Shown: positions 30,902 through 47,273 of the stretch, one piece after another
Layout of the letters: each line of letters starts with the position of its first letter
Numbering within the stretch: the stretch's first letter is position 1
Position numbers and translations under genes: made by a program
Notes under the pieces: model-generated
What the model was told of the DNA's origin: nothing
The model's input: the letters and a program-made list of their open reading frames with translations, nothing else
Database searches by the model: none
From: Candidatus Nomurabacteria bacterium
Lineage (GTDB): Bacteria; Patescibacteriota; Saccharimonadia; Saccharimonadales; CAIOMD01
NCBI GenBank assembly: GCA_020631975.1
Contig: JACKGO010000001.1
Location: forward strand, 3,409 to 67,408
DNA length: 64,000 nucleotides
Direction: 5' to 3'

Positions 30902-30915
30902 TACACTGTAAAAAT

Positions 30916-32291: not shown

Positions 32292-32330
32292 TAGTTTAGG
32301 GTACTAAGTTCTAACGCAATACATCATTAT

Positions 32331-32352: not shown

Positions 32353-32392
32353 GTTAATTTATTCTTATAATTCAAATCCTAACCTCTAAAAT

Positions 32393-32465: not shown

Positions 32466-32580
32466 ACAGTAAATGGTATTTCACAAAATATTAATTTCTA
32501 AGTAGTTATTAAGCAAACTGGTCATAGTGTTTGTGGTTGCGTCGCCTTAAGACAGTAGGATACTATTACCCTTATTAAAT

Positions 32581-33021
32581 ATGAGGTTAAGAGTGAAGGC
32601 CAATAAAAAAAATGAGTTAGTGCGAAATAAACAAAAAGCATGGTATATGGCTCATGCCGAAAAACCTTATCAGGAACGGATTATTGCAGCTGAACAAATA
32701 GAGAGCATGGCCATTGATTTACAAGAATTTCACCAAGAAGATATAGTAGTTTCAAAAAAGACAATGCAAAAAATGATGGGTGTAGGCAGGCTCGCTTTAT
32801 TAAGATACTGGCTAAGAGGTGAGCCGTCGTACTATATTTCGCAGTGCGGAAAAACAGCAATCATAAGTACCATAGATTTTATCTATTACGGGCAAGCTAA
32901 AGAGCTGTCAGCTTCTGAAATAGAATATCAGGCAGAAGGTCTTGTAGGTCAGCTAGAAGTGTGGTCAACAACAAATGCTAAAACAGCTTGGCGAATGCAC
33001 AAAATAACATCCAATATCTAG
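32581..33021 (+). CDS. Hypothetical protein (146 aa)
   Basis: The ORF lies between the two copies of the prfA 3' end. I recognise no domain. Confidence 0.5.
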   Translation: MRLRVKANKKNELVRNKQKAWYMAHAEKPYQERIIAAEQIESMAIDLQEFHQEDIVVSKKTMQKMMGVGRLALLRYWLRGEPSYYISQCGKTAIISTIDFIYYGQAKELSASEIEYQAEGLVGQLEVWSTTNAKTAWRMHKITSNI

Positions 33022-33059
33022 TATCCATAATCTAATATCTATAATCCAATACTAATAAT

Positions 33060-34115
33060 CTATGCGCTGTCTTGTAAGGCGTGGCGTTCGGCGTTGGCGA
33101 GTTCGTCAATAAGGTCTTGAATATCACCAGCCAGCGCGGCAGGGATATTGCTGCGGCTGTAGCCTATGCGGTGGTCCGTAATACGGTCTTGCGGAAAGTT
33201 ATAGGTGCGGATTTTTTCGCTGCGGTCGCCGCTGCCAATAAGTTTTTTGCGGGCATCGCTGAGCTGTTTTTGCTCATCGTCTATCTTCATTTGCATTAAC
33301 CGTGCCCGTAGCACGCCCATTGCTTTATCTTTGTTTTTGATTTGGGACTTTTCGTCTTGGCAGGTAACAACAAGGCCAGTAGGTACGTGGGTAATACGCA
33401 CAGCACTATCTGTTGTGTTTACACTTTGGCCGCCATGGCCGCTAGCTCTATATACATCTACCCGTAAGTCACTGGGGTTAAGCTCTATGTCTGTTTCTTC
33501 TGCTTCTGGTAACACAGCCACAGTTGCTGTGCTGGTGTGTATGCGGCCTTGGCTTTCTGTAACTGGTACGCGTTGCACGCGGTGTACGCCGGCTTCATAC
33601 TTATATGTTTTGTAGGCATCGCTCCCACGAATGGCAAAAATAATTTCTTTAAAACCGCCAGATTCTGATGGGCTTTCGCTAATGAGCTCGATTTTAAAAC
33701 TGTGGAGTTCGCCGTAGCGAACATACATACGATACAGATCTGCACTAAACAGTGAAGATTCATCGCCACCGGCACCTGCCCGAATTTCTATAATACAGTC
33801 GCGTTCGTCGTTTGGATCTTTTGGGGTGAGGGCAGCGTCTAGCGCTTCACTTAGGGTAGCAAGTTTGGTGGTGAGTTCGGTTACTTCTATTTCTGCAAGT
33901 TCGGCAAGGTCGCCACCACTGCTTAGCAGTTCTTTTGCTTCTGTAAGCTGTTCTTGGGCTGCGATGTAATCATCATATAAGGCGATGGTAGATTCTAAAT
34001 AATTTTGGCGTTTGGCAAGTTTTGGGTATTCTGGGCTACTAAAAATAGCAGTGTCATTAAGGCGACCTTTTAGTTCGGCAAGTTCTGCACGGAGGGTATG
34101 AATTTTTTGTTCCAT
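33060..34115 (-). CDS. prfA: Peptide chain release factor 1
   Basis: It has the RF1 tripeptide region [16 protein letters not shown] and the GGQ motif ([20 protein letters not shown]). Confidence 0.97.
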
Positions 34116-34166
34116 ATTTATATAGTTTACAGCTAATCTGTAGGTATTATCAAAAACATATTAGTA

Positions 34167-34384
34167 TTTTTCATTTTTGTGTGGTCAAAAACGAACCAAA
34201 AACCCACAGGGCGCCCAGCTCCCAATACTCATCTGCTAGTAACTTCTACATAGCACAAAAAGGACTCCTTGCAGTCGGTCTGGCACTTGTTATTTTAGGA
34301 AGTGCCAGACCACTCTTTTTGTATTGGCCATGCTAGAAGTTACATCAGCTGAATCAATAGTGAGCCGAGATGCCCAGACCCAGC
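34167..34384. repeat. Structured 217-bp repeat, copy A (candidate ncRNA; same orientation as copy B)
   Basis: It starts with the invariant 39-mer ttttcatttttgtgtggtcaaaaacgaaccaaaaacccac. It has nested helices and an apical 12-bp hairpin at 34277-34311. It lies between rpmE and prfA. Confidence 0.85.
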
Positions 34385-34478
34385 AGTCCGCTAGCAGACT
34401 CAATGTTGCAAAGAAGGTATCCATAATGATGAGCTCATAACGGATTACGTTTTGCCGTAAGCTGTGTACGGACGGCTT

Positions 34479-34835
34479 CTATGCAGCTGTTTTTACAGGT
34501 TTTTCTGGTTCTGCTTTGGCTTCGTCTTTGCTTGGTTTTTTGGCGCGAGTTTTGCTGGCAGATTTAATGCGGTCTTGTTGCGCTTTTTTGGCAGCTTCTT
34601 GGCGGGCCTTAAAGCGATCTACACGACCTTCCATGTCTAGCATCTTTTCTGTACCAGTGTAAAATGGGTGGCTACTGCTACTAATGTGAACTTTTACTAG
34701 TGGGTACTCTGTGCCGTCTTCCCACTTGGCGGTTTCTTCTGAACGCACAGTGCTGCGAGTTAATATACGCGTGCCGTCGTTTAAATCTTCAAAAATTACC
34801 AGACGGTAATCTTTGGCATGAATATCTTTTTTCAT
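34479..34835 (-). CDS. rpmE: Ribosomal protein L31 (type B-like, no CxxC) with a Lys/Ala-rich C-terminal tail
   Basis: [15 protein letters not shown]...HPFYTG is the L31 signature. The start is trimmed to ATG 34835. Confidence 0.9.
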
Positions 34836-35004
34836 AATATTGTACGTACCTCTGACCAATTAGTTGGCTGTTGGTTAGCAGCAGGTCAATCGCTGCAGGC
34901 AACAGGTGAATATATCTAGCATATAGTAACAGATAGGACGACTTCTTTCAATAGAAGAATAATGCATTACAACGACCAATGGTTTAGTACTCGCGGTACT
35001 ACTG

Positions 35005-35033
35005 TTGAATTAGCGTGCTGCATCTGTTATACT
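35005..35033 (+). promoter_or_regulatory. rpsB promoter (TTGAAT, 17-nt spacer, TATACT)
   Basis: Hexamers and spacing were read directly. It would give a ~78-nt 5' UTR. Confidence 0.55.
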
Positions 35034-35070
35034 AGGTGTACACATTAATTTAACGAAGCAATCTGCATAT

Positions 35071-35117
35071 ATATCCTCCCCACTCGGGGCGAATGTAGAT
35101 GAAGGGAGAAGGATATC
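35071..35117 (+). promoter_or_regulatory. rpsB 5'-UTR element: a CCUCC-containing tract able to pair with the SD
   Basis: atatcctccc (35071-35080) is complementary to gggag..gatat within the SD region (35104-35116). A competing cccc-actc-gggg hairpin lies at 35078-35089. Confidence 0.35.
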
Positions 35118-35828
35118 ATGGCGACAAAACCTGATATTAAGGCCTTGCTAGAAGCGGGCGCACATTTTGGTCACAAGACCAGTCGGTGGCATCCAAAGAT
35201 GGCACCATATATTCATAGTAAAAGAGGCGGTATACATATTATTGACCTCACAAAAACAGTCGAACAGCTAGAAAAAGCGATTGCTTTTGCAGAAAAGCAA
35301 ACTGCTGCAGGCCACCAAATATTGTTTGTTGGTACAAAACGCCAAGCCAAAGACATTGTAAAGACAGCAGCCGTATACGCTGGCCAGCCATACGTTGTTG
35401 AACGATGGTTGGGCGGTATGCTTACCAATTCAACAACAACCAACGCACGCATCAAAAAGCTCAAAGACCTAGAAGGCAAAATGGAAAGTGGCGAGCTTGC
35501 CAGCAGGTATAACAAGCTAGAAGTTCAACGGTTCCAAGAGCAAATAGATGCCATGAACCATAACTATGGTGGCATAAAAGACATGAACGGTCGCCCGGGG
35601 GCTGTTTTTGTAACAGATATCCTAGAAGATCAAAACGCCGTGAATGAAGCTATTAAACTAAACATTCCGGTCATTGCAATTGTAGATACCAACACAGACC
35701 CAAGCAAAATAGAGTATCCTATTCCTGCTAATGATGATGCAGTAGGTACGTTGCAGTTGATTGTGAATTACATTGCAGATGCAGCACAAGAAGGTCGTGG
35801 TAAAAAAGTAGCAAAGGCAGCTGAATAA
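35118..35828 (+). CDS. rpsB: Ribosomal protein S2
   Basis: It has LLEAGAHFGHKTSRWHPKM and a strong SD (gaagggagaagga). Confidence 0.97.
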   Translation: MATKPDIKALLEAGAHFGHKTSRWHPKMAPYIHSKRGGIHIIDLTKTVEQLEKAIAFAEKQTAAGHQILFVGTKRQAKDIVKTAAVYAGQPYVVERWLGGMLTNSTTTNARIKKLKDLEGKMESGELASRYNKLEVQRFQEQIDAMNHNYGGIKDMNGRPGAVFVTDILEDQNAVNEAIKLNIPVIAIVDTNTDPSKIEYPIPANDDAVGTLQLIVNYIADAAQEGRGKKVAKAAE

Positions 35829-35840
35829 AAGGGGGTAAGT

Positions 35841-36437
35841 ATGGCAATTGATATAGATACAATTAAGCGACTACGCGAACTAACAGGTGTTGGTATTACC
35901 GATGCCAAAAAAGCTCTGGTAGAAGCAGAGGGCGATTTTGATAAAGCCTTGGCTGCTATGCGTAAAAAAGGCATGACCAAAGCAGAAAAACGTGGTGAAC
36001 GCGAAGCCCGCGCCGGGGTTATAGGAAGTTACCTACACGATGGCCGAATAGGCGTACTTGTAGAAGTAAACTGCGAAACAGACTTTGTGGCACGGAACGA
36101 AAACTTTACGACTATTGTAAAAGACGTGGCAATGCACATTGCAGCTAGCTCACCAGAATTTGTAAGCCCAGATAACATACCAGAACAAGCCAAAGCAGAA
36201 AAACGAGCCGAATTTACAGAAAAGGTAAAAGCAGAAGGCAAGCCAGATAAAATGGTGCCACAAATTGTAGACGGTATGCTGAATAAATATTTTGCAGAAC
36301 GCTGCCTATTAGAACAACCGTTTATTAAAAACCCAGACATTACAGTAGACCAGTACGTTAAAGAGGGCATCGCAAAACTAGGTGAAAACATAGTAGTGCG
36401 TCGGTTTAGCCGTATGGCACTTGGCGAAGTTGTTTAA
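35841..36437 (+). CDS. tsf: Elongation factor Ts (short form)
   Basis: It has the N-terminal UBA-like segment IKRLRELTGVGITDAKKALVEAEGDFDKA and follows rpsB. Confidence 0.95.
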   Translation: MAIDIDTIKRLRELTGVGITDAKKALVEAEGDFDKALAAMRKKGMTKAEKRGEREARAGVIGSYLHDGRIGVLVEVNCETDFVARNENFTTIVKDVAMHIAASSPEFVSPDNIPEQAKAEKRAEFTEKVKAEGKPDKMVPQIVDGMLNKYFAERCLLEQPFIKNPDITVDQYVKEGIAKLGENIVVRRFSRMALGEVV

Positions 36438-36517
36438 AAAAAGCTCGCTTAACAAATAATACCACTGCTGCACCAACGCTGTTTGGTATATACTAAGAAT
36501 ATAGTAATGGGGGAATC

Positions 36518-37081
36518 ATGAGTCCAAACCAATTAGTAGAAGATGCAAAGACCAAACTAGCTACGGCCGTAAACCATTTTAATGACGAAATCAAAAAATT
36601 ACGGACTGGTCGGGCGCACCCGAGCATGCTCGATGGCATTACGGTACTAGCATATGGTACTCCCATGCCGTTAAACCAAGTCAGCAACGTAACTGCACCA
36701 GAAGCGCAACAGCTACAAATCACTCCGTTTGACCCCAGTAACATCCAGGCGATTTCTGATGCGATACGCAATGATCAGTCACTAGGGCTTAACCCAGCAG
36801 ATGATGGTCGGGTTGTGCGAATTTCTATTCCACCACTCACCACAGAACGTCGGCAGCAAATTGTAAAACAGCTTAACGAAAAGACAGAAGAAACGCATAT
36901 TGCATGTAGAAATATTCGCCACGAAGCATTAGACTCTGCCAAGCAAGCTAAAGCAGATAAAGATATTAGTGAAGACGATTACACCAGAATAGAAAAGCAA
37001 GTAGAAGATTTAATGACCAAAACTAAACAAGACATAGAAACAGCCACCAAAGCCAAAGAACAAGAGATAATGACGGTATAA
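36518..37081 (+). CDS. frr: Ribosome recycling factor
   Basis: It shows typical RRF sequence (LRTGRAHPSMLDGI...ERRQQIVKQ). Confidence 0.95.
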   Translation: MSPNQLVEDAKTKLATAVNHFNDEIKKLRTGRAHPSMLDGITVLAYGTPMPLNQVSNVTAPEAQQLQITPFDPSNIQAISDAIRNDQSLGLNPADDGRVVRISIPPLTTERRQQIVKQLNEKTEETHIACRNIRHEALDSAKQAKADKDISEDDYTRIEKQVEDLMTKTKQDIETATKAKEQEIMTV

Positions 37082-37136
37082 TCACGCAATCTAATGGCTA
37101 AAACAAAACTATCAAGATGTGAGGATGAAATAACAT

Positions 37137-37826
37137 ATGGTTCATAACAATACACAACCACAGCATGTGGGTATAGTCCTTGACGGCAACCGCCGTTGGG
37201 CCAAGCAGCATGGTGTGTCTGCCCAAGAAGGCCACAAGCAAGGGTTCGAAACGTTTCGGCGAATTGCCGATGCTGGTCTTGCACGGGGCATACCTTACTT
37301 AAGTGTTTTTGCTTTTTCTACAGAAAACTGGAACCGCGCCAAAGACGAAGTATCTTTTTTAATGCGCTTTATACAGATTGTTATGAATAAATACATAAGC
37401 GAACTTACCAAAAAAGATATACGCTTTATTTGGCTAGGTAGCGAAGAAGGGCTGGACGCCAAAATTATTAAGCAATTACGCCGCGCCGAAGAATCATCTA
37501 AAAATAATACTACAGCAACATTTTGTTTGTGTTTTAACTATGGTGGCCAACAAGAAATAGCCGATGCAGCTGCCAAGCTCGCAGCAACGGGAACGCCAAT
37601 TACGCAAGAGAGCATAGAAACTGCACTGTATGGCGGAAGTGCTGTGCCCCCTGTAGATTTACTTATACGGCCATCAGGCGAAATGCGCATTAGTAATTTT
37701 ATGTTATGGCGGGCAGCTTATAGCGAGCTGTTTTTTACCGACAAGCTCTGGCCAGATTTTACACCAGAAGATTTAGACGAAGCCTTAGCTGCGTATGCTT
37801 CACGCCATAGGAGGTTTGGCGCGTAA
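37137..37826 (+). CDS. uppS: Undecaprenyl-diphosphate synthase (cis-prenyltransferase)
   Basis: It has HVGIVLDGNRRWAKQHG, ENWNR and SNFMLWRAAYSE. Confidence 0.95.
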   Translation: MVHNNTQPQHVGIVLDGNRRWAKQHGVSAQEGHKQGFETFRRIADAGLARGIPYLSVFAFSTENWNRAKDEVSFLMRFIQIVMNKYISELTKKDIRFIWLGSEEGLDAKIIKQLRRAEESSKNNTTATFCLCFNYGGQQEIADAAAKLAATGTPITQESIETALYGGSAVPPVDLLIRPSGEMRISNFMLWRAAYSELFFTDKLWPDFTPEDLDEALAAYASRHRRFGA

Positions 37827-38983
37827 TGTGGTTAATTGTTTTAGGCTTATTTTTGTTTGTGCTACTTATAGTGCTGCACGAATACGGCCACTTTTTGGTA
37901 GCAAAACGTAACGGGGTAGATGTAGAAGAATTTGGTATAGGCTTTCCACCAAAACTATTTGGCAAAAAGTTGGGCAAGGGCATTTTTGAAGGCTATTACA
38001 CAATTAACTTGTTACCACTTGGTGGTTTTGTGCGGCTAAAAGGCGAAGAAGACGCTGCTACAGAAAAAGGTTCGTTTGGCTCGGTGGGTTTATCGGCTAA
38101 ATTGCGTATTATGTTGGCAGGTGTAGCGGTCAATTTACTTGCAGCGCTGGTGTTCTTTACTATTGTTGCGTGGGTGGGGATGCCACAAGTAATCCCTAAT
38201 CAATTTAGTGTGCCATCAGATAGCACGGTGCTCCGTAACGATATATTTGCTGGCTATGTAGACGCAGACTCACCTGCAGCGCAAGCAGGTTTGCAGGTAG
38301 GCGACACCATCGTATCTCTTAACAACCAACCAATTACCAACGAAGCATCGGTACGCGAAGTAGCATCTGCAAATGCAGGGAACACGGTGCCTATTGTTTA
38401 TGAACGTGATGGTCAAACTACCATGGCGACTACAACGCTGCTTAGTGAACAACAAGTAGCAGACAGTAAAAATACCGATACACCAAAGGGGTATTTGGGG
38501 GTTGTCCCAAGGAAATATACCCTTATACAATCTACGTGGTCGGCACCCATTGTAGCGGTTGGTGTATCTGCACAGCTGACTCATCTTACACTTAAAGCAC
38601 TTGGCGAAGCACTTTATAATTTAGTTTCTGCATTTTTTAGTGCAATAACTGGTAACACCAAAGAAGCACGGCAAGAAGCCTCTAAAGCGGGCGAAAACGT
38701 GTCTGGACCAGTAGGTATATTTGCCATCTTGCAGCAAGGAACAGATTTAGGCTACCAATTTATACTATTTGTTGTTGCTGTTATTAGCCTTACTTTGGCT
38801 ATTATGAACTTTTTGCCAATCCCAGCCTTAGACGGTGGTCGGGCATTTGTAATGCTCCTTTTTAAGGCGATGAAAAAACCACTTACTCCAGACTTAGAAG
38901 CACGTATACATGGCACCGGGTTTGCTGCGTTAATGATATTATTTGTTGTAATAACGGTGGTTGATATACGCCGCTTTTATTAG
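37826..38983 (+). CDS. rseP: Site-2 protease RseP-like (M50) with a PDZ domain
   Basis: It has HEYGHFLVAK (HExxH in TM1) and the C-terminal NFLPIPALDGG motif. Its start overlaps the uppS stop as TAATG. Confidence 0.9.
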   Translation: MWLIVLGLFLFVLLIVLHEYGHFLVAKRNGVDVEEFGIGFPPKLFGKKLGKGIFEGYYTINLLPLGGFVRLKGEEDAATEKGSFGSVGLSAKLRIMLAGVAVNLLAALVFFTIVAWVGMPQVIPNQFSVPSDSTVLRNDIFAGYVDADSPAAQAGLQVGDTIVSLNNQPITNEASVREVASANAGNTVPIVYERDGQTTMATTTLLSEQQVADSKNTDTPKGYLGVVPRKYTLIQSTWSAPIVAVGVSAQLTHLTLKALGEALYNLVSAFFSAITGNTKEARQEASKAGENVSGPVGIFAILQQGTDLGYQFILFVVAVISLTLAIMNFLPIPALDGGRAFVMLLFKAMKKPLTPDLEARIHGTGFAALMILFVVITVVDIRRFY

Positions 38984-38989
38984 CGATTC

Positions 38990-39856
38990 ATGCCTATGGA
39001 CACGCTTATAAAAAACAAAAAACGAATCGTTGTACCATGGGATGCTCGGTATGCGTATAGCGTCACTATTTTGGCGTATGTTGTTTCGCAGCTTTTTACA
39101 ACGCTGCCACTACTCGTAGCACTGTTTTTTACGAATTGGTCCACAATAGAAGATAGTTTATTAGATCAACCCTGGATGAGCCTGAGTCTAACAGGGGTAG
39201 GGGCGGTTGGTATTTTTGTTGTTTTGTATTACTTTTTGCATAAAAAAAAGTATGGTTTTTCGCAACTAAAGCTACAAAAGGGGTTGCCACTTAAATCGTT
39301 ATTGCTTGTTGCAGGAACGTATATTGTGTACATCTTGCTTAGTGTTGCCGTGGCAGCTATTGTGCAGGCGCTGTTTCCATCTTTTAATGCAGATCAAGAA
39401 CAGCTGGTTGGTTATAAAAATGCCGTTGGCTGGCAATTAATCTTAGCGTTTGTTGGCTTGGTGGTGGTGCCACCAATTGCAGAAGAGATGTTATTTAGAG
39501 GCTTTTTATACCAAGGGCTGCGTGACCACTGGAATAAACATGCCACGTTATGGTGGGGTTTTGGCGTAGCTATTGCCGTGGCACTACTAGCAGGTGCTGT
39601 CGCCGGCATTATTGTAGCGCTGCTCATAGTTGTATCTATAGTTATTGGTAAAAAGCATCCAGCACGTGCTGCGGCCATTGTTACCAGTGTGCTTTTTGGC
39701 TTGGTACATATGCAGTGGAACATTAGTATAGATACGTTTATATTTTCTTTTGCGCTAATATACGTGTTTGAGAAAACACAAAATTTGTGGGCGGCGATTG
39801 TGCTGCATGCGCTTAAGAATGGAATTGCGTTTGTAGGATTATTTATTTTATCTTAA
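38990..39856 (+). CDS. CPBP-family intramembrane glutamic endopeptidase (CAAX protease-like)
   Basis: It has the motifs EEMLFRG, FGLVH and HALKN in a polytopic protein. Confidence 0.85.
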   Translation: MPMDTLIKNKKRIVVPWDARYAYSVTILAYVVSQLFTTLPLLVALFFTNWSTIEDSLLDQPWMSLSLTGVGAVGIFVVLYYFLHKKKYGFSQLKLQKGLPLKSLLLVAGTYIVYILLSVAVAAIVQALFPSFNADQEQLVGYKNAVGWQLILAFVGLVVVPPIAEEMLFRGFLYQGLRDHWNKHATLWWGFGVAIAVALLAGAVAGIIVALLIVVSIVIGKKHPARAAAIVTSVLFGLVHMQWNISIDTFIFSFALIYVFEKTQNLWAAIVLHALKNGIAFVGLFILS

Positions 39857-39863
39857 GCAAATA

Positions 39864-40080
39864 TTTTCATTTTTGTGTGGTCAAAAACGAACCAAAAACC
39901 CACTGGGCGCTCAGCTCCCAATACACATCTGCTTGTAACTTCTACATAGCACAAAAAGGACTCCTTACAGTCGGTCCGATTCTTGTTAATAAAGACGAAT
40001 CAGACTATTCTTTTTGTCTTGGCCATGCTAGAAGTTACATCATCTGAATCAATAGGGCGCTGAGATGCCCAGACCCAAGC
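39864..40080. repeat. Structured 217-bp repeat, copy B (left bracket of the R-M cassette)
   Basis: It begins 8 nt after the CPBP stop codon. It has the same 39-mer and helices as copy A. The apical stem sequence is changed but pairing is retained (ggtccgattctt / acgaatcagact). Confidence 0.85.
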
Positions 40081-40113
40081 GCACATTACGACAGGTTCGT
40101 AATTAAAAACATA

Positions 40114-40149
40114 ACGCTACAGATAGCGTAGGTACGCTATCTGTAGCGT
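40114..40149. other. Perfect 17-bp inverted repeat (strong hairpin or cruciform)
   Basis: acgctacagatagcgta-gg-tacgctatctgtagcgt. An A-run lies upstream (aattaaaaac) and a T-run lies 10 nt downstream (tttttt). Confidence 0.8.
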
Positions 40150-40324
40150 AGTGCTAGCTTTTTTAAAAATATTACTTAAACTTCTTTTTCCTTGGATATG
40201 TCAAAAATACGACACGCAAATCAACTGTGCAGAACAAGGCTATATCCACATTGCATGCACAGAAGATTGAATTGACATCACATTAGTTATGGATTATTGA
40301 AGTTAACATAGTAGAATAGTATTA

Positions 40325-41140
40325 ATGAGTAAAAAAATTCTTGAGGGTGTTGGAGTTTCTCCTGTATTTAAGGGTTCGAACTATGCACTGTACTTGCATG
40401 ATTCTATTGAGCTTATAAAACAGCTACCAGAAAATAGTATAGATATGATTTTTGCGGATCCTCCATACAATTTATCTAATGGTGGCTTTACTGTACATGC
40501 AGGCAAAAGAGTCAGCGTTCATAAAGGCGACTGGGACAAAAGTAATGGTGTAGAAGACGATTATATTTTCCACCATAACTGGATAAAAGAGTGTTATAGA
40601 ATTTTAAAGCCTGAAGGAACTATATGGATAAGTGGCACCTACCACTCCATATACCAGTGTGGCTATGCGTTACAACAAGTTGGTTATAAAATTTTAAACG
40701 ATATAAGTTGGTTCAAGCCTAATGCATCACCCAACTTAAGTGGTAGATACTTTACTGCGAGCCATGAAACATTGATTTGGGCAAGGAAAGATCATAAATC
40801 AAAACATGTTTTTAATTACCAAGATATGAAAAATGGTGAGTGGCACGTGGTTGATTTAATAAAAAAAGAAGGCAAACAGATGAGAAGTGTTTGGGCTATT
40901 GGGACGCCCAAACAGGATGAAAAAAAATATGGTAAGCATCCTACGCAAAAACCATTAGCACTATTGGAAAGAATTATATTAGCCTCAACACACCCATCTC
41001 ATGTAATACTTGATCCATTTACTGGAAGCTCAACTACAGGTGTGGCTGCTCTTAAGTTTGGAAGAAAATTTATTGGTATTGATCTTGAAAAAGAATATTT
41101 AAATGTGTCAAAAAGTCGTTTAGAGGACGTAACTATTTAA
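40325..41140 (+). CDS. Beta-class N6/N4 DNA methyltransferase (type II R-M)
   Basis: The catalytic motif IV (FADPPYN) precedes the SAM motif I (ILDPFTGSSTTGVAA), which is the order of the PF01555-type family. Confidence 0.9.
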   Translation: MSKKILEGVGVSPVFKGSNYALYLHDSIELIKQLPENSIDMIFADPPYNLSNGGFTVHAGKRVSVHKGDWDKSNGVEDDYIFHHNWIKECYRILKPEGTIWISGTYHSIYQCGYALQQVGYKILNDISWFKPNASPNLSGRYFTASHETLIWARKDHKSKHVFNYQDMKNGEWHVVDLIKKEGKQMRSVWAIGTPKQDEKKYGKHPTQKPLALLERIILASTHPSHVILDPFTGSSTTGVAALKFGRKFIGIDLEKEYLNVSKSRLEDVTI

Positions 41141-41150
41141 AGGAGAAATA

Positions 41151-41681
41151 ATGATAGAAGGTGGTATCGGCGGTGCAAATACTAAAACTGGAATCATATT
41201 TGAAGGACGCGTAGATCTACTCACTAAATTCAAGACACTTGATAGATATTCTGTTAAAGAAAACATTATTTTGTACGATAAAAAAGAGGTTGCGCGTTAC
41301 TACAAGAAACGATCACTTTATAAATTACTCGAAGAAAATAATATTAACTATAAAGATTATATCTCTAAGCGGCTAGAACCTGATAACGCCATTTATGTCA
41401 TCAAAGACAATACACTAAATGTCATAGAAATGAAGTTTCAAAGAGTTGCGGGATCTGTAGACGAGAAGCTACAAACCTGCGATTTTAAGAAAAAACAGTA
41501 TAAAAAATTATTCTCAGCACTGAATTATGAGGTTGAATACATCTATATATTAAGTGATTGGTTTAGAAAAGAAGAGTACAAGGATACTCGCGACTATATT
41601 ATTTCTGTTGGTTGTAAGTTATATTTTGAATATTTACCTCTAAATGAAATTGGCTTACCTGTGCCAGATGAAAGTCAATAA
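41151..41681 (+). CDS. Putative type II restriction endonuclease, PD-(D/E)xK
   Basis: It is a 176-aa ORF starting 10 nt after the methyltransferase, with an AAGGAGA SD. It has a candidate PD...ExK motif (EPDNAIYV...NVIEMKFQ). The assignment rests on context plus the motif only. Confidence 0.6.
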   Translation: MIEGGIGGANTKTGIIFEGRVDLLTKFKTLDRYSVKENIILYDKKEVARYYKKRSLYKLLEENNINYKDYISKRLEPDNAIYVIKDNTLNVIEMKFQRVAGSVDEKLQTCDFKKKQYKKLFSALNYEVEYIYILSDWFRKEEYKDTRDYIISVGCKLYFEYLPLNEIGLPVPDESQ

Positions 41682-41714
41682 TTAATATAAAGCTGCAACA
41701 GGAAATTATAACAA

Positions 41715-42038
41715 GTGAATTTAAAAGATATTATAATACCGTCACAATTTAGCAAATCAGATATTATTGAAGCATATATTTTTGGAAGTACCGCTAAAAA
41801 TATTGATGGTCACGATAGAGATATTGCTTTATTTATCAGAAGTAATCACCCATCTTTTATACAAATGGGTAATGAATATAATTTGTATAATAATAATCTT
41901 GAGTATCATGTACTGCCTTATAATGACCAAGGCAAATCAATCTTTTATGCGATGTTGGAAATGAAAGATTATAAATATGGCACAGGTAAAGGTGTAGCTA
42001 TCTCGGTAGATATAGATGAGAATACTGATGCAATGTAG
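41715..42038 (+). CDS. Minimal nucleotidyltransferase (MNT-like)
   Basis: It has a GS...DxD signature (IFGSTAKNIDGHDRDIALFI) and a GTG start. Confidence 0.6.
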   Translation: MNLKDIIIPSQFSKSDIIEAYIFGSTAKNIDGHDRDIALFIRSNHPSFIQMGNEYNLYNNNLEYHVLPYNDQGKSIFYAMLEMKDYKYGTGKGVAISVDIDENTDAM

Positions 42039-42074
42039 AGGGTACTTATCTTAAAAGTTGTATAATTAGTATAT

Positions 42075-42329
42075 ATGTCACAAGAAGTATTAAGGCAATC
42101 TGATGACGATTTGCCGATTAATGTAGATGAGCTTCTCATAGAAATACAACTAGCTGCGAAAGAGCTCGGCAATGGGCGTAAGCATATGGATGAACGCCGT
42201 AAAATAGCTTATAGGTATATTATTAAAGAAAATATAATTGCACTGGGGCTAGACCCCCAGAACTACTACGGCGATTACCGCGCATTGCTACAGGCTCGCC
42301 CTTCAAGTCAAATTGTTGACGAAAACTAA
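42075..42329 (+). CDS. Hypothetical protein (84 aa)
   Basis: The ORF is downstream of the MNT-like gene. It has no recognisable motif. Confidence 0.4.
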   Translation: MSQEVLRQSDDDLPINVDELLIEIQLAAKELGNGRKHMDERRKIAYRYIIKENIIALGLDPQNYYGDYRALLQARPSSQIVDEN

Positions 42330-42380
42330 TTTTAGTAACAAATATTTATCTGATTCATTATTAAGCTTTTATTGAACTCT

Positions 42381-42431
42381 GCTGATGCCCAGTGGGTTTT
42401 TGGTTCGTTTTTGACCACACAAAAATGAAAA
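42381..42431. repeat. Partial copy D of the structured repeat (invariant tail only, orientation as copy C)
   Basis: gctgatgcccagtgggtttttggttcgtttttgaccacacaaaaatgaaaa contains the reverse complement of the invariant 39-mer. Confidence 0.85.
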
Positions 42432-42494
42432 CCAGAATAAATAGAGGTTCTTAAAATCAATGATGTTTATTTAGTATCCTTCATTGAACGATTG

Positions 42495-42711
42495 GCTGGG
42501 TCTGGGCATCTCGGCTCACTATTGATTCAGCTGATGTAACTTCTAGCATGGCCAAGACAAAAAGAGTAGTCTGACACTTCCCAAAGTAACAAGTGTCAGA
42601 CCGACTGTAAGGAGTCCTTTTTGTGCTATGTAGAAGTTACTAGCAGATGAGTATTGTGAGCTGAGCGCCCAGTGGGTTTTTGGTTCGTTTTTGACCACAC
42701 AAAAATGAAAA
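42495..42711. repeat. Structured 217-bp repeat, copy C (inverted relative to A/B; right bracket of the R-M cassette)
   Basis: Its reverse complement aligns end to end with copies A and B. The apical stem is gtctgacactt / aagtgtcagac. Confidence 0.85.
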
Positions 42712-42841
42712 GTAATATAAGTAATATAGGTACTAAAAAGTACCAGAAATAAGTTGTAGTGTATCTACAAATTATTAATTTATGAAAAGACTATAAAAAG
42801 AGTATTTATTTTCCGTATGTTTTAGGAGTACTATTAGCCAT

Positions 42842-43162
42842 ATGGACTATAAAACTATGCAACAACAGGCACTACAGATAAGTAACTTGTACGATATGTT
42901 AAATAAAAAACATGCACAAAAAATATGGAACGAACAAGATGTTATGGCAGGTTTTGTGGGTGACGTAGGAGATTTATCTAAATTAATATTGGCAAAGAAT
43001 AATTTGCGTAGTAAAGACAACGTAGACGAAGCTTTAGCGCACGAACTGAGTGATTGTTTATGGTCTTTGCTTGTGCTGGCAGACAAGCTTGGTATAGATT
43101 TAGACCAGGCATTCATAAAAACAATGGATAGCCTAGAACAAAAGCTTACTCAAAAACTGTAG
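42842..43162 (+). CDS. MazG-like all-alpha NTP pyrophosphohydrolase
   Basis: The small 106-aa helical protein has DEALAHELSDCLWSLLVLADKLGIDLDQAF, typical of the MazG/NTP-PPase fold. Confidence 0.6.
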   Translation: MDYKTMQQQALQISNLYDMLNKKHAQKIWNEQDVMAGFVGDVGDLSKLILAKNNLRSKDNVDEALAHELSDCLWSLLVLADKLGIDLDQAFIKTMDSLEQKLTQKL

Positions 43163-43561
43163 AGCAAGTAGTAGCAAAAATATTCGTTCATTATATGGAA
43201 GACTACAATTACGAAAGTGGCTCATTTATTCCTGCTATACCTGTTATTTATATAATGGTGCGCATACGGCAATACAGGGAAATGCTAGCAAAACATATGG
43301 CACTCGCAAGCGAAGAAGCAGAATGGCGCTACACTGCCACCATGAATTAACACATAAGAGTTAGATTTTATAGCTAGGAAGAATTAGTAGAATCATTTGG
43401 TTTGGCAATGCAAAAGCCTCGTATATACTTATGCTTATGGACGATACCATGCAAGAATTTGTTAGTTGGCTAAAAACTGATCTTACTCATTTTGCAGCAC
43501 TGGTAGAAGAAGGTTCGGTAGCTACAGACGACCCCAAGCAAGACGGCTATAGCGATATGAT

Positions 43562-44101
43562 TTGCAGATAGTTGTATATAAAGATATTACAAGCGAAATG
43601 TTGGCGGTACGAAACTGGCTACAGCAACATCCGCTTGGCGATAATTACTTGTTGAGTCCACGTGTATATGAAGAATTTATCGTAGGTGATACATTAAATG
43701 ATTTATCACTAAAATTTAGATCTAGAACCATTGCTGGCAGGGACGTGGTCGCAGAAAAGCTGCCACCGAGTAGGGAAGCTGCCATAAAAATTGGGTACGA
43801 TGGTTTACAATATTTGGTTAAACGATTAGAGCGCCGCTGGCTAAACTTAGCCCACTGGTCAAATGATTACTCACGCCATAAAAACTATGAAATATATAAA
43901 AACTTCTTTGTGTATTTTGCGGCTCTACACTATGGCAAAACGGGGCACTATCCTAATAGTAGAGCAGACGTAGCAGAAGTCATGCCAGATCAACAATTAG
44001 CCCATAATGTATTATTAGTAACCAACGATATCGCCAATGCCAGCAAAGACCAACAAAACCTCGCATTAGAATCTGCCATACAAATCATCCAAAAAATGTA
44101 G
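43562..44101 (+). CDS. Hypothetical protein (start uncertain: TTG 43562 or ATG 43598)
   Basis: This is a 179-aa ORF with no recognisable motif. Confidence 0.5.
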   Translation: MQIVVYKDITSEMLAVRNWLQQHPLGDNYLLSPRVYEEFIVGDTLNDLSLKFRSRTIAGRDVVAEKLPPSREAAIKIGYDGLQYLVKRLERRWLNLAHWSNDYSRHKNYEIYKNFFVYFAALHYGKTGHYPNSRADVAEVMPDQQLAHNVLLVTNDIANASKDQQNLALESAIQIIQKM

Positions 44102-44226
44102 TCGTAAAAAAATTAACACAAAACATTTTTACATAAATATTTGTATTGTCTAATAGTATGCATAAACGAATATAGACAAAAAAACAATAGTATGATATAC
44201 TAAATTTACTTAATACTAATAAAAAA

Positions 44227-45474
44227 ATGACAGAAACATTAACTGCACCAGAAATACTTATAGACTCCCGAAAAGATGCGATCCCTGACTATGAAGAAAT
44301 TGAGCAAGGCATCAAAAGACGTGTCCTTGACTATTTGCACAATCATAGAGAGGAAATATCTATCCAAACAGTAGAATATGGCGAAGATTATGACGTATTA
44401 TTGCCTCTTATAGAACAAGATGCGCCATGGAGTGTTGAACAAATACTTGAGAAATACTCAAAAAGACTGGCAAAAACTAAATCACATACATGGTGGGCAA
44501 AGACTCTTAATATAATAAGAGACAAGCTTCCAGATCCTAGCGCAACCGATGCTCTGCAGATGACCGCTGTTCACCATTTAACTCTAGAAGAAGACAATCA
44601 AGTACAGGGCGACTTCGAGATATACGATATAGGAAACGAAGAAATAGACGAAGATACACTAAAGACTGTATATGCTACGTTACAACTTATAGATCAATTT
44701 GCAGGTGGCTTAATTTCTAAAGATCCTAGGTTCAAAAGGGTAATACTGGTAACTGGCCTAGACATAGGGTCGGGTCTAGGAAGAAGACACGACGAGAATT
44801 CTCAAATTCTGGGCTATTTTAACAGAACAGATGAAGTTGTTATCAATATTAGCGGCATTAAAGTAAAAGCCCTAAATGCCGCAGTGTCGTATAATGAAAC
44901 ACTTTCAGCTGTACTCGTGCATGAAGTACTAGGACACGCCTTAGAAAAACTGATATTCAATAATAATGAATCATTTAATGAGCACTTTGACTACTCTGAA
45001 GAACGTATTACGGGCGAGATATATACCTCAATACACCAAGACATAAGCCCTATAGAAGAAACGCTTACTGAAACTACACAACCGGTACGTGAATATGGTT
45101 GGATGAATCCCGCTGAAGACTTAGCTACTACCGTAGATGGATTAGTAACAAGAGTGATGGGCTGGGACTTAGAAAAAATTAAAAATTTTAAAAGTAATCC
45201 TGATAGATATAGAGAAGAGATAATCATGCGTATGATGGATATGGCTGCCGCTAAGGCAAGAGAAATGGGAGCCTCTGGGGTTGTGGGGAGCCGCATTACA
45301 TTCATACTAGATGAGCATGGCAATACAAAAGTAAGACCTGCGCAACAACCACACGTTACAACCGTAACGGGCGAAGAATATATCAAAAAGACAATAGACG
45401 ATGCATATAAAGAAATAATCGAAACTATTCCACGTACTATACGCGTATACTTAGCGCCTGAAATGGTTATGTAA
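44227..45474 (+). CDS. Hypothetical protein (415 aa)
   Basis: This long ORF contains HEVLGH, which is HExxxH and not a canonical HExxH. Confidence 0.6.
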   Translation: MTETLTAPEILIDSRKDAIPDYEEIEQGIKRRVLDYLHNHREEISIQTVEYGEDYDVLLPLIEQDAPWSVEQILEKYSKRLAKTKSHTWWAKTLNIIRDKLPDPSATDALQMTAVHHLTLEEDNQVQGDFEIYDIGNEEIDEDTLKTVYATLQLIDQFAGGLISKDPRFKRVILVTGLDIGSGLGRRHDENSQILGYFNRTDEVVINISGIKVKALNAAVSYNETLSAVLVHEVLGHALEKLIFNNNESFNEHFDYSEERITGEIYTSIHQDISPIEETLTETTQPVREYGWMNPAEDLATTVDGLVTRVMGWDLEKIKNFKSNPDRYREEIIMRMMDMAAAKAREMGASGVVGSRITFILDEHGNTKVRPAQQPHVTTVTGEEYIKKTIDDAYKEIIETIPRTIRVYLAPEMVM

Positions 45475-45569
45475 AAACAAAAGAGTTTATTTAGATCTCT
45501 ACATTTTTATATTATACACACCCATAACAACAGCCTATTGGTACAGTACTTCTGGTATAATTGCTAGAC

Positions 45570-47273
45570 ATGAGAGTAACAGAACTATTTACCAAGACAA
45601 GCAAAACAGTACCAGCGGACGAGACAGCGAGAAACGCACAACTTCTTATACAAGCCGGTTTTATTCATAAAGAAATGGCAGGAGCCTACGCCTATTTGCC
45701 ACTTGGCTTGCGTGTGATAGAAAACATCAAAACCATTGTGCGTGAAGAAATGAACGCCACAGGGAGCCAAGAATTATTAATGACGGTTCTGCAACCCAAA
45801 GAAATTTGGGAAAAAACCAATCGCTGGGACGATGCAGTGGTAGATAACTGGTTTAAAACAACGTTACTTAACGGCACAGAGCTGGGGGTAGGCTTAACCC
45901 ACGAAGAACCAATCGTAGATGCGGCCAAGGGTTCAATTTCTTCTTATAAAGATTTGCCTAAAAGTGTCTACCAAATAGGTACAAAGTTCCGTAATGAAAA
46001 ACGAGCGAAATCGGGCCTATTAAGAGGCCGAGAATTTATTATGAAAGACGCCTATACATTTGCCAAAGATCAAACCCAGCATGAAGAAATCTATGAAAAA
46101 ATTGCGGCTGCTTACCACAAAGTATATGAACGCTTAGGTCTAGGCGATAGCACATACCGCGTAAAGGCAGATGGTGGGATTTTTACAAAAAGATATAGCG
46201 ACGAATTTCAGACGGCAAGCCCTTTGGGCGAAGATACGATATTTACAGTGCCAGACACTGATATATTTTTTAATGCAGAAATAGCGCCGTCTCAGGCACC
46301 ACAAGGTGCGCAACCGACCGATACATTACCAATGGAGCATCTAAAAACTCCAGGTGTAACAGGCGTGCAGCAACTATCAGAAGTCTTAGGCGTACCCGTA
46401 GAGAGAACAGTCAAAACAATGCTCTATATTGTAGACGGGGTACTTACTGCCGTGGCAGTACGGGGAGATTACGATGTAAACGAAATCAAGCTAAGGACAG
46501 CGCTTGGTGCTACGAAGGTGGCTTTAGCAGATGAGGCAACGATTAAAGAAACCACTGGTGCAGCCGTAGGCTACGCCGGATTAATTGGTTTGCCAAACGA
46601 TGTTCAGATTATCGTGGATGATTCGCTAAAAACACTCGTTAACTTTGAGCTTGGTGCAAATAAAACAGACTATCACTGCATTAACGTAAACTGGGGCAGA
46701 GATTTGCCACTGCCAGAAAAGCTGTACGACGTTAAAATGGCCAAAACTGGTGATATTCATCCAGAAACTGGCAAAGTATACACGACCTTTAAAGGTGTAG
46801 AAGTGGGCAATATATTCCCCTTAGAAACAAAATTTACAGATGCACTAGATTTATACTATTCAGACGAAAACGGTGAACGAAAACAGATTATTATGGGAAG
46901 TTATGGCATAGGGGTTAGCCGATTAATGGGGGTTATAGCAGAGCATTTTGCCGATGACAAAGGGTTAGTTTGGCCAGAAAACATCGCACCGTTTTTAGTG
47001 TATCTTGTACAAATAGGTACAGACGAAGCTGTAGCGCAAGCAGCTAAAAACTTATACACAGAACTGGCTGCCAAGGGTATAGAAGTCCTGTGGGACGATA
47101 GGGATGCTCGCCCAGGTGAAAAATTTGCCGATGCCGATTTATATGGCATACCGTACCGCATTGTGGTAAGTAATAAGACACTACAGAGCAACCAATACGA
47201 AGTAAAAAAACGTTCTGAAAAAGATTCAGAAATGATATCAAAAGAAAAACTTGTCAATATGTTTACAACCTAG
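45570..47273 (+). CDS. proS: Prolyl-tRNA synthetase (bacterial type)
   Basis: It has the class II motifs (LLRGREFIMKDAYTF) and a C-terminal anticodon-binding region. The start is set to ATG 45570 because TTG 45561 overlaps the -10 box TGGTATAAT (45553-45561). Confidence 0.95.
   Translation: MRVTELFTKTSKTVPADETARNAQLLIQAGFIHKEMAGAYAYLPLGLRVIENIKTIVREEMNATGSQELLMTVLQPKEIWEKTNRWDDAVVDNWFKTTLLNGTELGVGLTHEEPIVDAAKGSISSYKDLPKSVYQIGTKFRNEKRAKSGLLRGREFIMKDAYTFAKDQTQHEEIYEKIAAAYHKVYERLGLGDSTYRVKADGGIFTKRYSDEFQTASPLGEDTIFTVPDTDIFFNAEIAPSQAPQGAQPTDTLPMEHLKTPGVTGVQQLSEVLGVPVERTVKTMLYIVDGVLTAVAVRGDYDVNEIKLRTALGATKVALADEATIKETTGAAVGYAGLIGLPNDVQIIVDDSLKTLVNFELGANKTDYHCINVNWGRDLPLPEKLYDVKMAKTGDIHPETGKVYTTFKGVEVGNIFPLETKFTDALDLYYSDENGERKQIIMGSYGIGVSRLMGVIAEHFADDKGLVWPENIAPFLVYLVQIGTDEAVAQAAKNLYTELAAKGIEVLWDDRDARPGEKFADADLYGIPYRIVVSNKTLQSNQYEVKKRSEKDSEMISKEKLVNMFTT

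Follow-up and report, generated by a model that had tools for sequence, protein, structure and literature searches.

Why a predicted restriction-modification (R-M) system should lie between inverted copies of a structured repeat is the question raised by a 64,000-nt stretch of Candidatus Nomurabacteria bacterium DNA (GCA_020631975.1, contig JACKGO010000001.1, positions 3,409-67,408 of the forward strand; hereafter the window). A first-pass annotation of the sequence had read the interval from repeat copy B to repeat copy C as a composite, non-autonomous mobile unit, or else as a cassette inserted through recombination between repeat copies. The comparisons described here argue that the R-M genes are probably foreign cargo in a conserved replacement-type defence slot, whose contents a naturally competent lineage exchanges through homologous recombination.

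The cargo genes and the structured repeat

The features on which the argument turns, in window coordinates, are as follows.

34162-34384, + strand: repeat copy A, between the core genes rpmE (34479-34859, - strand) and prfA (33060-34115, - strand)
38990-39856, + strand: CPBP/Rce1-like intramembrane protease gene (PF02517, 2.6e-15), conserved left flank of the slot
39857-45560, no strand assigned: entire variable CPBP-proS interval (GC 0.36), with different content in each species examined
39864-40077/40079, + strand: repeat copy B, head then long hairpin; left border of the slot, within the swapped block
40114-40149, no strand assigned: palindrome, 17+17 nt and perfect (ACGCTACAGATAGCGTA/TACGCTATCTGTAGCGT), preceded by an A-run and followed by a T-run
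40325-41140, + strand: beta-class N6-adenine DNA methyltransferase (M), CcrM/HinfI-like (PF01555, 2.6e-59; PADLOC MTase_II, 3.1e-99; PDB 6pbd CcrM, 1.8e-59)
41151-41681, + strand: candidate 176-aa PD-(D/E)XK nuclease (R), directly 3' of the methyltransferase
41715-42038, + strand: 107-aa ORF, weakly nucleotidyltransferase-like ('MNT'), of lowest GC (0.296); last gene of the swapped block
42053-42074, + strand: right breakpoint of the allelic substitution, directly 5' of the orf84 start; the identity of L022 and L001 to the window resumes at 42053
42075-42329, + strand: orf84 (84 aa), small conserved gene, right flank of the R-M slot
42387-42431, - strand: partial repeat, 45-nt head only, in the orientation of C and 100% complementary to the head of B
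42495-42717, - strand: repeat copy C, a paralogue of A (95%), outside the swapped block
42842-43162, + strand: MazG-like gene (PF12643/PF03819, both sub-threshold), part of the variable CPBP-proS interval

The methyltransferase belongs to the beta class, as first annotated, since its DPPY motif stands ahead of FxGxG (FTGSSTTG). The small nuclease proposed beside it was borne out by residues P77, D78, E93 and K95 (P77-D78...E93-x-K95), which are invariant across 36 homologues, and by an AF2 model (pLDDT 82.6) whose best Foldseek matches are PD-(D/E)XK nucleases, including BstEII, at E values of at least 2e-3 and TM scores of 0.3-0.4. Homologues of the nuclease number 5408, and one directly follows an M homologue at L038, L039 and L040, loci that include an Elusimicrobium and another Saccharibacterium. 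The 176-aa ORF is probably the restriction endonuclease partner of the methyltransferase, and the motif-bearing methyltransferase and its adjoining, linked nuclease together constitute a predicted type II R-M system. Such a pair resembles the CcrM/HinfI-family enzymes that have a small PD-(D/E)XK partner, both in the adjoining PD...ExK nuclease and in being kept together across phyla; it differs from them in that GANTC is not depleted in the window (114 sites observed vs 108 expected, ratio 1.05) and in that the nuclease has no sequence match in PDB, PADLOC or NCBIfam. The third gene had been called a minimal nucleotidyltransferase, of which a weak Polbeta likeness stands (PF18765, E 1e-4), although its 22.9 bits fall below the cut-off of 26.9. 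Only 12 distant relatives of this ORF were found, mostly internal domains of large proteins; its single-sequence model (pLDDT 40.8) was unusable, it has no match in PDB, and no HEPN partner was matched among its neighbours.

The cassette had looked AT-rich by eye, and GC is indeed 0.342 over 39858-42052 as compared to 0.428 for the window and 0.431 for neighbouring core genes, with individual cargo genes at 0.30-0.36 vs 0.43. The description does not extend to B, C and orf84, whose GC is native (0.42-0.44), and low GC runs past C up to proS. Both M and R are 66% identical to their Elusimicrobium minutum homologues, as compared to 37% for ProS and 27% for RseP, and the M-R homologues at L038-L040 occur without repeats. 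The GC and identity comparisons show the M-R pair to be of foreign origin and horizontally acquired. No transposase is encoded between B and C, and no direct repeat flanks either B...C or the cargo as a target-site duplication, both in agreement with the first-pass annotation; neither was an integrase or recombinase found in or near the slot at any locus examined. An integron-like cassette array was rejected, as the window holds no integrase near the slot and the full repeat copies are inverted rather than direct.

The repeats themselves are as first described: B and C are inverted, their heads face outward, B begins with the 8th base past the stop of the CPBP ORF (38990-39856), and orf84 and the partial repeat lie between them. 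The full element is about 215-217 nt long (to 223 nt in A and C), and the 64-kb window contains three full copies and one partial copy, with none elsewhere in it. All four copies share an identical 40-nt head, and a 29-mer from this head occurs four times vs zero expected from shuffles. The inverted arms of B and C comprise one stretch of 125 nt at 95% and another of 78 nt at 94%, and A and C are 95% complementary over 223 nt. Copy B shares 88-91% identity with A and C, and its L036 orthologue is comparably similar (86-90%); that B resembles A and C no more closely than does the orthologue from another species would fit B and the cargo having been brought in jointly from another lineage.

The predicted fold of the element comprises a small AU hairpin, a U-tract and a long hairpin in which 26 pairs covary, and copy A folds far more stably than shuffles (z = -5.4 and -6.7, one per strand). 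Covariation on this scale suggests that the fold is under selection. When the Rfam 15 covariance models were searched, the window gave no match at gathering score and 33900-43200 none at E ≤ 5, while the L006 and L036 repeat copies gave only generic-hairpin matches far below threshold; no tRNA or tmRNA was found. The strongly covarying repeat, for which Rfam holds no match, remains unclassified and is a side result of modest novelty. Two copies carry transcription-like signals. The partial repeat holds, on the + strand, a terminator-like GCCCAGTGGG-TTTTT and a promoter-like TTGACC-16-CAGAAT site, and the head of copy C holds an outward promoter-like TTGACC-16-TAATAT site directed at the MazG-like gene. 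The palindrome resembles a terminator on either strand, and four species keep its sequence after B; as it is conserved in sequence and not in structure alone, it might be a protein-binding or recombination site.

Alleles and diversity within the species

Near-identical strains revealed where the exchanged segment begins and ends. L022 is 98.9% identical to the window over 37108-39857 and 100% identical over 42053-42549, and in between, 787 nt containing a 219-aa ORF take the place of 39858-42052, that is, of B, the palindrome, M, R and the MNT-like ORF. The L001 allele is that of L022 with an IS30 insertion; both lack copy B and retain orf84, the partial repeat and C. A third, cargo-less allele (L004, on one 2.7-kb Logan contig) keeps C and 28 nt of the B head, and its junction lies in a 10-nt microhomology, CAAAAA(C/T)GAA, common to the 3' arms of the B-head and partial-copy hairpins. 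The cassette is accordingly accessory, being missing from all three strains, and orf84 is common to the R-M allele and the 219-aa allele.

Diversity was then measured relative to the window across 18 same-species contigs, which are metagenome consensus contigs and possibly chimeric:

Left core flank: 0.66%
Copy B: 0/2509 compared bases
Cargo: 0.08%
orf84 to partial repeat: 0.99%
Copy C: 2.5%
MazG side: 2.1%

B and the cargo form a trough, and orf84 is itself polymorphic (0.99%). The ends of the trough vary by contig: the last SNPs before the SNP-free block lie within the CPBP gene at 39262, 39535, 39706, 39772 or 39778, making that gene the site of the variable left crossover points, and the block ends on the right at 41918, at 42115 or beyond. 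Such variable haplotype ends inside CPBP and orf84 argue for homologous recombination rather than cutting at the repeat ends. An identical methyltransferase follows CPBP in 23/23 contigs read that encode it, and short-read contigs break within the repeats. The swapped, near-monomorphic unit is therefore 39858-42052, which ends 5' of orf84 and excludes C. That the swapped block leaves C outside, and that it occupies a fixed locus in at least 23 contigs, largely refutes the earlier reading of B...C as a composite mobile unit.

We propose that B, the palindrome, M, R and the 107-aa ORF (39858-42052) were recently gained and spread in the species as a block that replaces, or is replaced by, the 219-aa-ORF allele. 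The exchange would have taken place via homologous recombination with crossovers in CPBP on the left and orf84 on the right, and B would move with the block because it lies within the recombined tract. The incoming DNA would most plausibly have arrived by natural transformation, as Saccharibacteria are naturally competent and integrate DNA through homologous flanks of about 0.5 kb (PMC10633639). Copies C and A would be paralogues elsewhere and not transposon termini, and the palindromic repeat heads could also act as deletion microhomology, as in the L004 allele. The order of events may be read either way, as gain of the R-M block or as loss of the 219-aa allele, and the low variation of B and cargo could instead reflect a very recent clonal origin followed by recombination in the flanks.

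The slot in other species and competing explanations

In all relatives, frr-uppS-rseP precede the CPBP gene, and in four other species (L036, L034, L005 and L006) an orthologue of B lies directly after its stop codon. The first-pass annotation had anticipated that the same bracket might carry different cargo, and this is what these four loci contain. At L036, CPBP is followed after 8 nt by the B orthologue, the palindrome, a type II methyltransferase (2.5e-118) of the EcoRI-methylase family, a GmrSD/HNH REase (2.7e-129), an orf84 homologue (62% identical) and proS, and the B orthologue is the sole repeat copy there. In L034, a type IIG enzyme (3.7e-256) comes after a B-like element and the palindrome, and L005 and L006 have a B-like element and then small ORFs. 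An inverted repeat pair of species-specific sequence surrounds the slot in L006, the second copy being the first with its hairpin interior deleted. The slot of L008 holds a 75-aa ORF and no repeat. An empty site in which CPBP leads directly to a MazG-like gene (66% identical), without repeats, had also been foreseen; it was seen in L031, but that is a more distant species and not a near-identical strain. The MazG-like gene is missing from L006, L008 and L036.

Related genomes keep the flanking genes but hold non-homologous cargo between them, which marks this locus as a replacement hotspot. The left border of the R-M slot is CPBP plus copy B and the 36-nt palindrome, its right border is orf84 here and in L036, and in a wider sense the slot extends to proS. 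The slot spans 0.4-5.7 kb, with one system at a time, in a host genome that we expect to be about 1 Mb. Since species with other cargo have an orthologue of copy B in this very place, B is older than the present cargo, and it is best read as a resident structured element rather than a transposon end. The M-R pair occurs elsewhere without repeats, and copy A has no accessory DNA between its core-gene neighbours. Judged by the refuting conditions set out in the first-pass annotation, the transposon reading fails, but the association of a repeat with the border of the variable slot survives. The rpmE-prfA gap of L008 and L009 is 92 nt and contains no repeat.

The competing explanations assign the repeats a more active part. 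If the hairpins and quasi-palindromic heads were substrates for microhomology- or hairpin-induced breakage, giving deletions, inverted duplications and cassette capture, then the variability of the slot would be a consequence of the repeats. The microhomology at the L004 junction, the hairpin-interior deletion in L006, the contig breaks within repeats and the inverted pairs flanking the slot in two species are all in keeping with this. We nevertheless consider it quite unlikely, as the main polymorphism, the R-M block vs the 219-aa allele, has no repeat at its right breakpoint, copy A has caused no visible rpmE-prfA rearrangement, an inverted-orientation cassette was seen in 0/23 contigs, L036 carries the slot and foreign cargo with one repeat copy, and L008 and L031 lack the repeat yet differ in CPBP-proS content. 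The recurrence of an inverted pair in L006 is not explained by simple flank recombination, and the repeats may have had some part in forming the slot. Another idea, which also seems rather improbable, is that B and/or the palindrome serve as an attachment site, much as tRNA/tmRNA genes do for genomic islands, at which defence cassettes are inserted by a recombinase whose gene lies elsewhere or arrives with the incoming DNA, partial copies being left as scars. Variable cargo does begin right after B and the palindrome in four species, the palindrome sequence is conserved, a 45-nt head-only copy lies on the far side of the cargo, the cargo-less L004 allele keeps the head of B, and core defence hotspots in Pseudomonas are flanked by ncRNA-gene landing sites (PMC10250203). 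Set against this, no integrase or recombinase accompanies the slot at the loci examined, the partial head is inverted relative to B while attL/attR-type scars are direct repeats, L022 is without B, palindrome and cargo together, its right breakpoint has no repeat, and the haplotype-block ends are variable and inside genes.

That B and C are the ends of a non-autonomous unit resembling a MITE pair, mobilised in trans and carrying defence genes, is very improbable. The inverted copies with identical outward 40-nt heads, the transposase-free interior, the direct CPBP-MazG-like junction of L031, the precedent of R-M units flanked by inverted repeats without a transposase (PMC2853133) and an IS481 transposase 10 kb off (29533-30504) would all suit such a unit. 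However, the outer flanks, ...AAGCAAATA before B and GTAATATAAG... after C, share nothing, a repeat search of 39850-42850 gave no flanking direct repeat that would indicate a target-site duplication, and the unit was found at no second locus in 23 contigs. The strain-level empty or alternative sites (L022, L001, L004) keep C, and complete absence of the unit was seen solely in the distant L031; C is polymorphic, in contrast to the monomorphic B and cargo, B is orthologous in species with other cargo, and the M-R pair is found elsewhere free of repeats. A single element also lacks terminal inverted repeats of its own, its ends TTTTCATTTTTG... and ...CCCAGACCCAGC not being inverted copies, and the IS481 region and the IS30 region of L001 are dissimilar to the repeat.

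Known systems and the nature of the repeat

Exchange of cargo between conserved flanks has a precedent in the allelic substitution of R-M systems at a fixed chromosomal locus reported by Furuta, Abe and Kobayashi (2010; PMC2853133). As there, unrelated R-M or other genes occupy one position with conserved flanks, deviant GC, distant-phylum homologues and no mobility gene; here, in contrast, a conserved structured non-coding element and a palindrome form part of the left flank, there is a within-species trough with variable ends, and the host is a Saccharibacterium (CPR). In core defence hotspots (Johnson et al. 2023, PMC10250203) and in flexible genomic islands of the replacement type (Hochhauser et al. 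2023, PMC10121019), conserved core genes likewise mark the slot and defence systems differ by isolate; for these hotspots, transfer through the conserved flanks by homologous recombination has been proposed. In comparison, the slot here is tiny, its border is a ~215-nt unclassified hairpin element and not a tRNA/tmRNA gene, and the DNA would come by transformation rather than transduction. Transposon-like R-M units with long inverted repeats and 8-bp duplications have been described in X. oryzae and N. gonorrhoeae, their repeats occurring neither at the empty site nor elsewhere in the genome (PMC2853133). The present locus shares with them an R-M system between long imperfect inverted repeats and no transposase inside, but it has no duplication, its polymorphic unit excludes one repeat, another repeat is orthologous beside other cargo, and yet another lies between core genes.

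MITE-flanked units, such as integron mobilisation units, consist of transposase-free cargo bracketed by two short non-autonomous elements; MITEs end in inverted repeats, are flanked by target duplications and depend on a cognate IS for their mobility. Two repeat copies surround transposase-free cargo here as well, but terminal inverted repeats, target duplications and a cognate IS were not found at this locus. Inverted repeats flanking R-M genes do not alone delimit a mobile unit, which is a caution for genome scans. The locus is a population-level case of defence-gene turnover in an ultrasmall epibiotic CPR bacterium without mobile-element machinery, which agrees with the recently shown competence of Saccharibacteria, and its naturally permissive insertion site (CPBP-B and orf84 or proS) could be useful for engineering such bacteria genetically.

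BOX, REP/BIME and Correia elements are short, strongly folding, non-coding intergenic repeats near gene ends. The repeat described here resembles them in that it can provide terminator-like and promoter-like signals, and it differs in its very low copy number (three full and one partial in 64 kb), in the conserved position of one copy across species and in its extensive covariation. As a strongly covarying motif absent from Rfam, it is a candidate structured RNA. More tentatively, and on balance unlikely, the ~215-nt element may represent an undescribed class of structured RNA or folded ssDNA, specific to a Saccharibacteria clade and functional on the strand reading hairpin to head, with a dedicated role at the defence-slot border either in insulating transcription, through a terminator and an outward promoter, so that foreign cassettes can be plugged in safely, or as the recognition site of a cassette-exchange mechanism.

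Repeat copies and the genes between them

The following repeat copies were located, with the CPBP intramembrane protease gene given for reference.

34162-34384 (+): repeat copy A, 95% complementary to C over 223 nt
38990-39856: CPBP/Rce1-like gene, directly before copy B
39864-40079 (+): repeat copy B, starting at the eighth base past the CPBP stop codon
42387-42431 (orientation as C): partial repeat, 45-nt head only
42495-42717 (−): repeat copy C, inverted relative to B

The first-pass annotation had placed B 8 nt after the CPBP stop codon and C in inverted orientation, and both the positions and the inversion were confirmed; one pair of arms spans 125 nt at 95% complementarity, the other 78 nt at 94%. 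All four copies share 40 identical bases of the head, and a 29-mer from the head occurs four times in the window as compared to zero times in 100 shuffles. Two nhmmer profiles detected no further copies in the remaining 55 kb of the window and none in loci lacking B. An exact 24-mer of the repeat was found in one contig among 185,579 species genomes and in two JGI metagenome contigs, with no matches in viral contigs; the three contigs matched by the repeat head, one from a Saccharibacteria MAG and two from metagenomes, all represent the same loci as the window. Beyond the window's species, the repeat was located solely via protein anchors.

The genes annotated at first pass between B and C largely held up. 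The methyltransferase (M) is indeed of the beta class (PF01555 at 2.6e-59; CcrM 6pbd at 1.8e-59; PADLOC MTase_II at 3.1e-99). The proposed PD-ExK endonuclease (R), a 176-aa protein with 5408 homologues, is corroborated by P77, D78, E93 and K95, which are invariant across 36 homologues, by an AF2 model (pLDDT 82.6) predicted to resemble PD-(D/E)XK nucleases including BstEII, and by homologues lying directly after an M homologue in Elusimicrobium minutum and another Saccharibacterium. No PDB sequence match was found for R, nor any entry in PADLOC or NCBIfam. The 84-aa ORF (orf84) and the partial repeat are both present. For the supposed minimal nucleotidyltransferase, an ORF of 107 aa does exist (41715-42038), but its Polbeta match is below threshold only. 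It has 12 detectable distant relatives among 1.84 billion representatives, most of them domains inside proteins of 750-1541 aa (at residues ~600-730) that lack a Pfam match; a word-index search returned the ORF itself alone, and a single-sequence AF2 model was unusable. The ORF could be a fragment of a gene, or else a domain belonging to some unknown system.

The AT-richness first judged by eye was computed: GC is 0.342 over 39858-42052 as compared to 0.428 for the window. Copies B and C and orf84 are of native GC, and the low GC runs on to proS. In agreement with the first reading, no transposase was found inside B...C, and no target duplications or direct repeats were found around either B...C or the low-GC cargo.

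A variable slot after the CPBP gene

Through homologues of the CPBP protein, the orthologous region was reached in a single near-identical strain and in about six related species (60-70% protein identity), and methyltransferase and orf84 look-ups added 19 more contigs of the window's species; all comparisons are based on metagenome contigs. Within this one species, at about 98.4-99% nucleotide identity, three alleles occupy the slot.

Alleles at the slot after CPBP in the window's species
Window type: B, palindrome, M, R, 107-aa ORF, orf84, partial copy, C
L022 type: 39858-42052 (B, palindrome, M, R, 107-aa ORF) swapped for 787 nt with a 219-aa ORF
L004 type (single contig): CPBP, then 28 nt of the B head, joined to the spacer before C

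The L022-type allele is without copy B and retains orf84, the partial copy and C; strain L001 carries the same allele with an IS30 insertion. The junction in L004 lies at a 10-nt microhomology, CAAAAA(C/T)GAA.

Divergence relative to the window over 18 cassette-bearing contigs
Left core genes: 0.66%
B: 0/2509
Cargo: 0.08%
orf84 to partial repeat: 0.99%
C: 2.5%
MazG side: 2.1%

The ends of the SNP-free block differ among contigs, falling at 39262-39778 on the left, inside CPBP, and at 41918, 42115 or beyond on the right, in the 107-aa ORF or orf84. A haplotype that has spread recently, with exchange by homologous recombination, looks like this. The pattern agrees exactly with the L022 breakpoints, and it puts B inside the varying unit and C outside it. 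We infer both the direction of these events and the route of transfer.

Core gene order, (prfA-rpmE)-rpsB-tsf-frr-uppS-rseP-CPBP ... proS-greA, is kept throughout, and the CPBP-proS interval is different in every species.

Slot content after CPBP in other species
L008: 75-aa ORF
L006: 195-aa membrane protein
L005: 212-aa ORF
L036: type II MTase and GmrSD/HNH REase
L034: 1050-aa type IIG enzyme
L031: MazG-like gene directly

Both arrangements that the first-pass annotation had proposed looking for are among these: CPBP followed directly by the MazG-like gene (L031) and the same bracket with different cargo (for example, the type II R-M genes of L036 and the type IIG enzyme of L034). An orthologue of B lies within a few bases of the CPBP stop codon in L036, L034 and L005 and ~110 nt later in L006, in the same orientation in all four. 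A 36-nt palindrome of conserved sequence follows B in the window, L036, L034 and L005, with unrelated cargo next. The palindrome was also considered as a dispersed REP-like motif, but elsewhere it matches only when 2-3 mismatches are allowed, at what look like small hairpins unrelated to it. L036 has an orf84 homologue (62% identity) after its R-M genes, and L006 has a second repeat copy, shortened and inverted, upstream of proS, so a second species also has the inverted bracket, with a sequence of its own. No repeat copy was found in L008, L009, L010 or L031, and the L008 rpmE-prfA gap is only 92 nt, indicating that copy A has been added between two core genes. By comparison of these loci, copy B is a resident element and not a transposon end.

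The first-pass annotation had read B...C as a composite non-autonomous mobile unit, or as a cassette inserted by recombination between repeats. A transposon-like R-M unit flanked by inverted repeats was rejected given that a target duplication is lacking, no empty site cleanly lacks the whole unit and the unit occurs at one location only, and the composite reading is not supported by these sequence comparisons. It remains true that the cassette is accessory and exchanged by recombination, and that the repeat is a border marker of the variable slot. The locus is an R-M replacement hotspot, a known kind of locus and, to our knowledge, the first case in a CPR bacterium. It behaves like allelic R-M substitution at fixed loci (PMC2853133) and resembles replacement-type defence hotspots flanked by core genes and non-coding RNA genes, for which homologous-recombination transfer via conserved flanks has been proposed (PMC10250203). 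Saccharibacteria are naturally competent, and short homologous flanks suffice for DNA integration (PMC10633639).

M and R share 66% identity with the Elusimicrobium minutum pair, as compared to 37% for ProS and 27% for RseP, which together with the low GC shows that M-R was acquired horizontally. No repeat was found beside the M-R pair in E. minutum or at the homologous loci L039 and L040. Copy B shares 88-91% identity with A and C, and the L036 orthologue is about as close (86-90%) despite only 65% identity between the window and L036 CPBP proteins. This is consistent with copy B having been imported along with the cargo from a different lineage of Saccharibacteria. In E. minutum (CP001055, 3204-4525) the M-R pair has ispG on one side and proS on the other and lies downstream of rseP, a setting broadly like that in the window, and it overlaps the adjacent genes as though it were part of a housekeeping operon.

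GANTC is the site of the CcrM/HinfI family. It is not depleted in the window once dinucleotide content is accounted for, and its avoidance was dropped as a clue to specificity. The most under-represented pentamer of the form XYNY'X' (two bases, any base, their complement) is GGNCC, with 55 observed vs 117 expected (order-1 model, whole window).

Structure and possible role of the repeat

A by-product of modest novelty is the repeat itself, an unclassified structured element with a 40-45-nt head (a small AU hairpin and an A/U-rich spacer) and a hairpin of ~175 nt. An alignment of seven copies, drawn from four species, was scored on the predicted structure. Paired cells amounted to 93%, as compared to 84% in column shuffles and 37-47% in slid controls, and compensatory changes were seen in 26 of 68 pairs, as compared to 9 ± 2 and 4-9, respectively. 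The hairpin-to-head strand gives the more stable fold in 8/8 copies (five species, including L005) and contains 32 G-U vs 6 A-C cells in the seven-copy alignment, which favours an RNA (or a single strand that folds) with this polarity.

We infer a role for the repeat from its layout. On the hairpin-to-head strand, GGGUUUUUGG comes after the hairpin, and the TTGACC of the head, together with sequence flanking C and the partial copy, makes up promoter-like sites, so the repeat could be a terminator-promoter module at the rpmE/prfA and orf84/MazG-like gaps. Copy B faces the opposite way, toward the CPBP 3' end, and no convincing promoter was found for it on the hairpin-to-head strand. A coding role was rejected, as the 51-56-aa ORF of the window copies is either interrupted or unrelated in L005, L006 and L034, its frame shifts between copies, and no ORF is conserved. 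Rfam searches of the window and divergent copies at gathering and permissive thresholds returned nothing meaningful, and a tRNA/tmRNA scan found none, with no tRNA genes in the 64 kb.

Other features of the window and its relatives

Strain L022 (99% identical) has two extra genes at otherwise conserved intergenic sites, one of 150 aa between rpmE and rpsB (L022 629-1124) and one for a 118-aa membrane protein between frr and uppS (L022 3260-3576); neither is repeat-flanked. An IS481-family transposase (29533-30504, −; rve domain, NCBIfam at 2e-49) lies within another variable interval of the window, between prmC and prfA (27376-34115), which in L008 holds two small ORFs only. The prfA 3' end (33057-33133) has a 77-nt copy at 84% identity 0.6 kb downstream (32390-32466), the two flanking a 146-aa ORF (32581-33021). 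A 112-nt direct repeat (87%; 30894-31005 and 31685-31796), just upstream of unannotated ORFs of 210 and 166 aa, probably represents paralogous 5' regions.

After the MazG-like gene, the short ORF at 43138-43350 is what truncation has left of a 103/147-aa gene, which L023 (3423-3969) and L036 (11408-11851) carry intact; the window lacks 347 nt here, deleted at a 9-nt microhomology, AAAAACTGT. ProS (45561-47273) is 570 aa in the window's species, with an editing (tRNA_edit) domain, and 415-417 aa in L006, L008 and L036, which are without residues ~242-411; the flanking parts are 61-68% identical. Three very large ORFs (510-7493, 8291-14872 and 17046-21125; 2327, 2193 and 1359 aa) contain internal repeats, including glycine-rich GGTGGC tracts (13540-14146), and are probably surface proteins.
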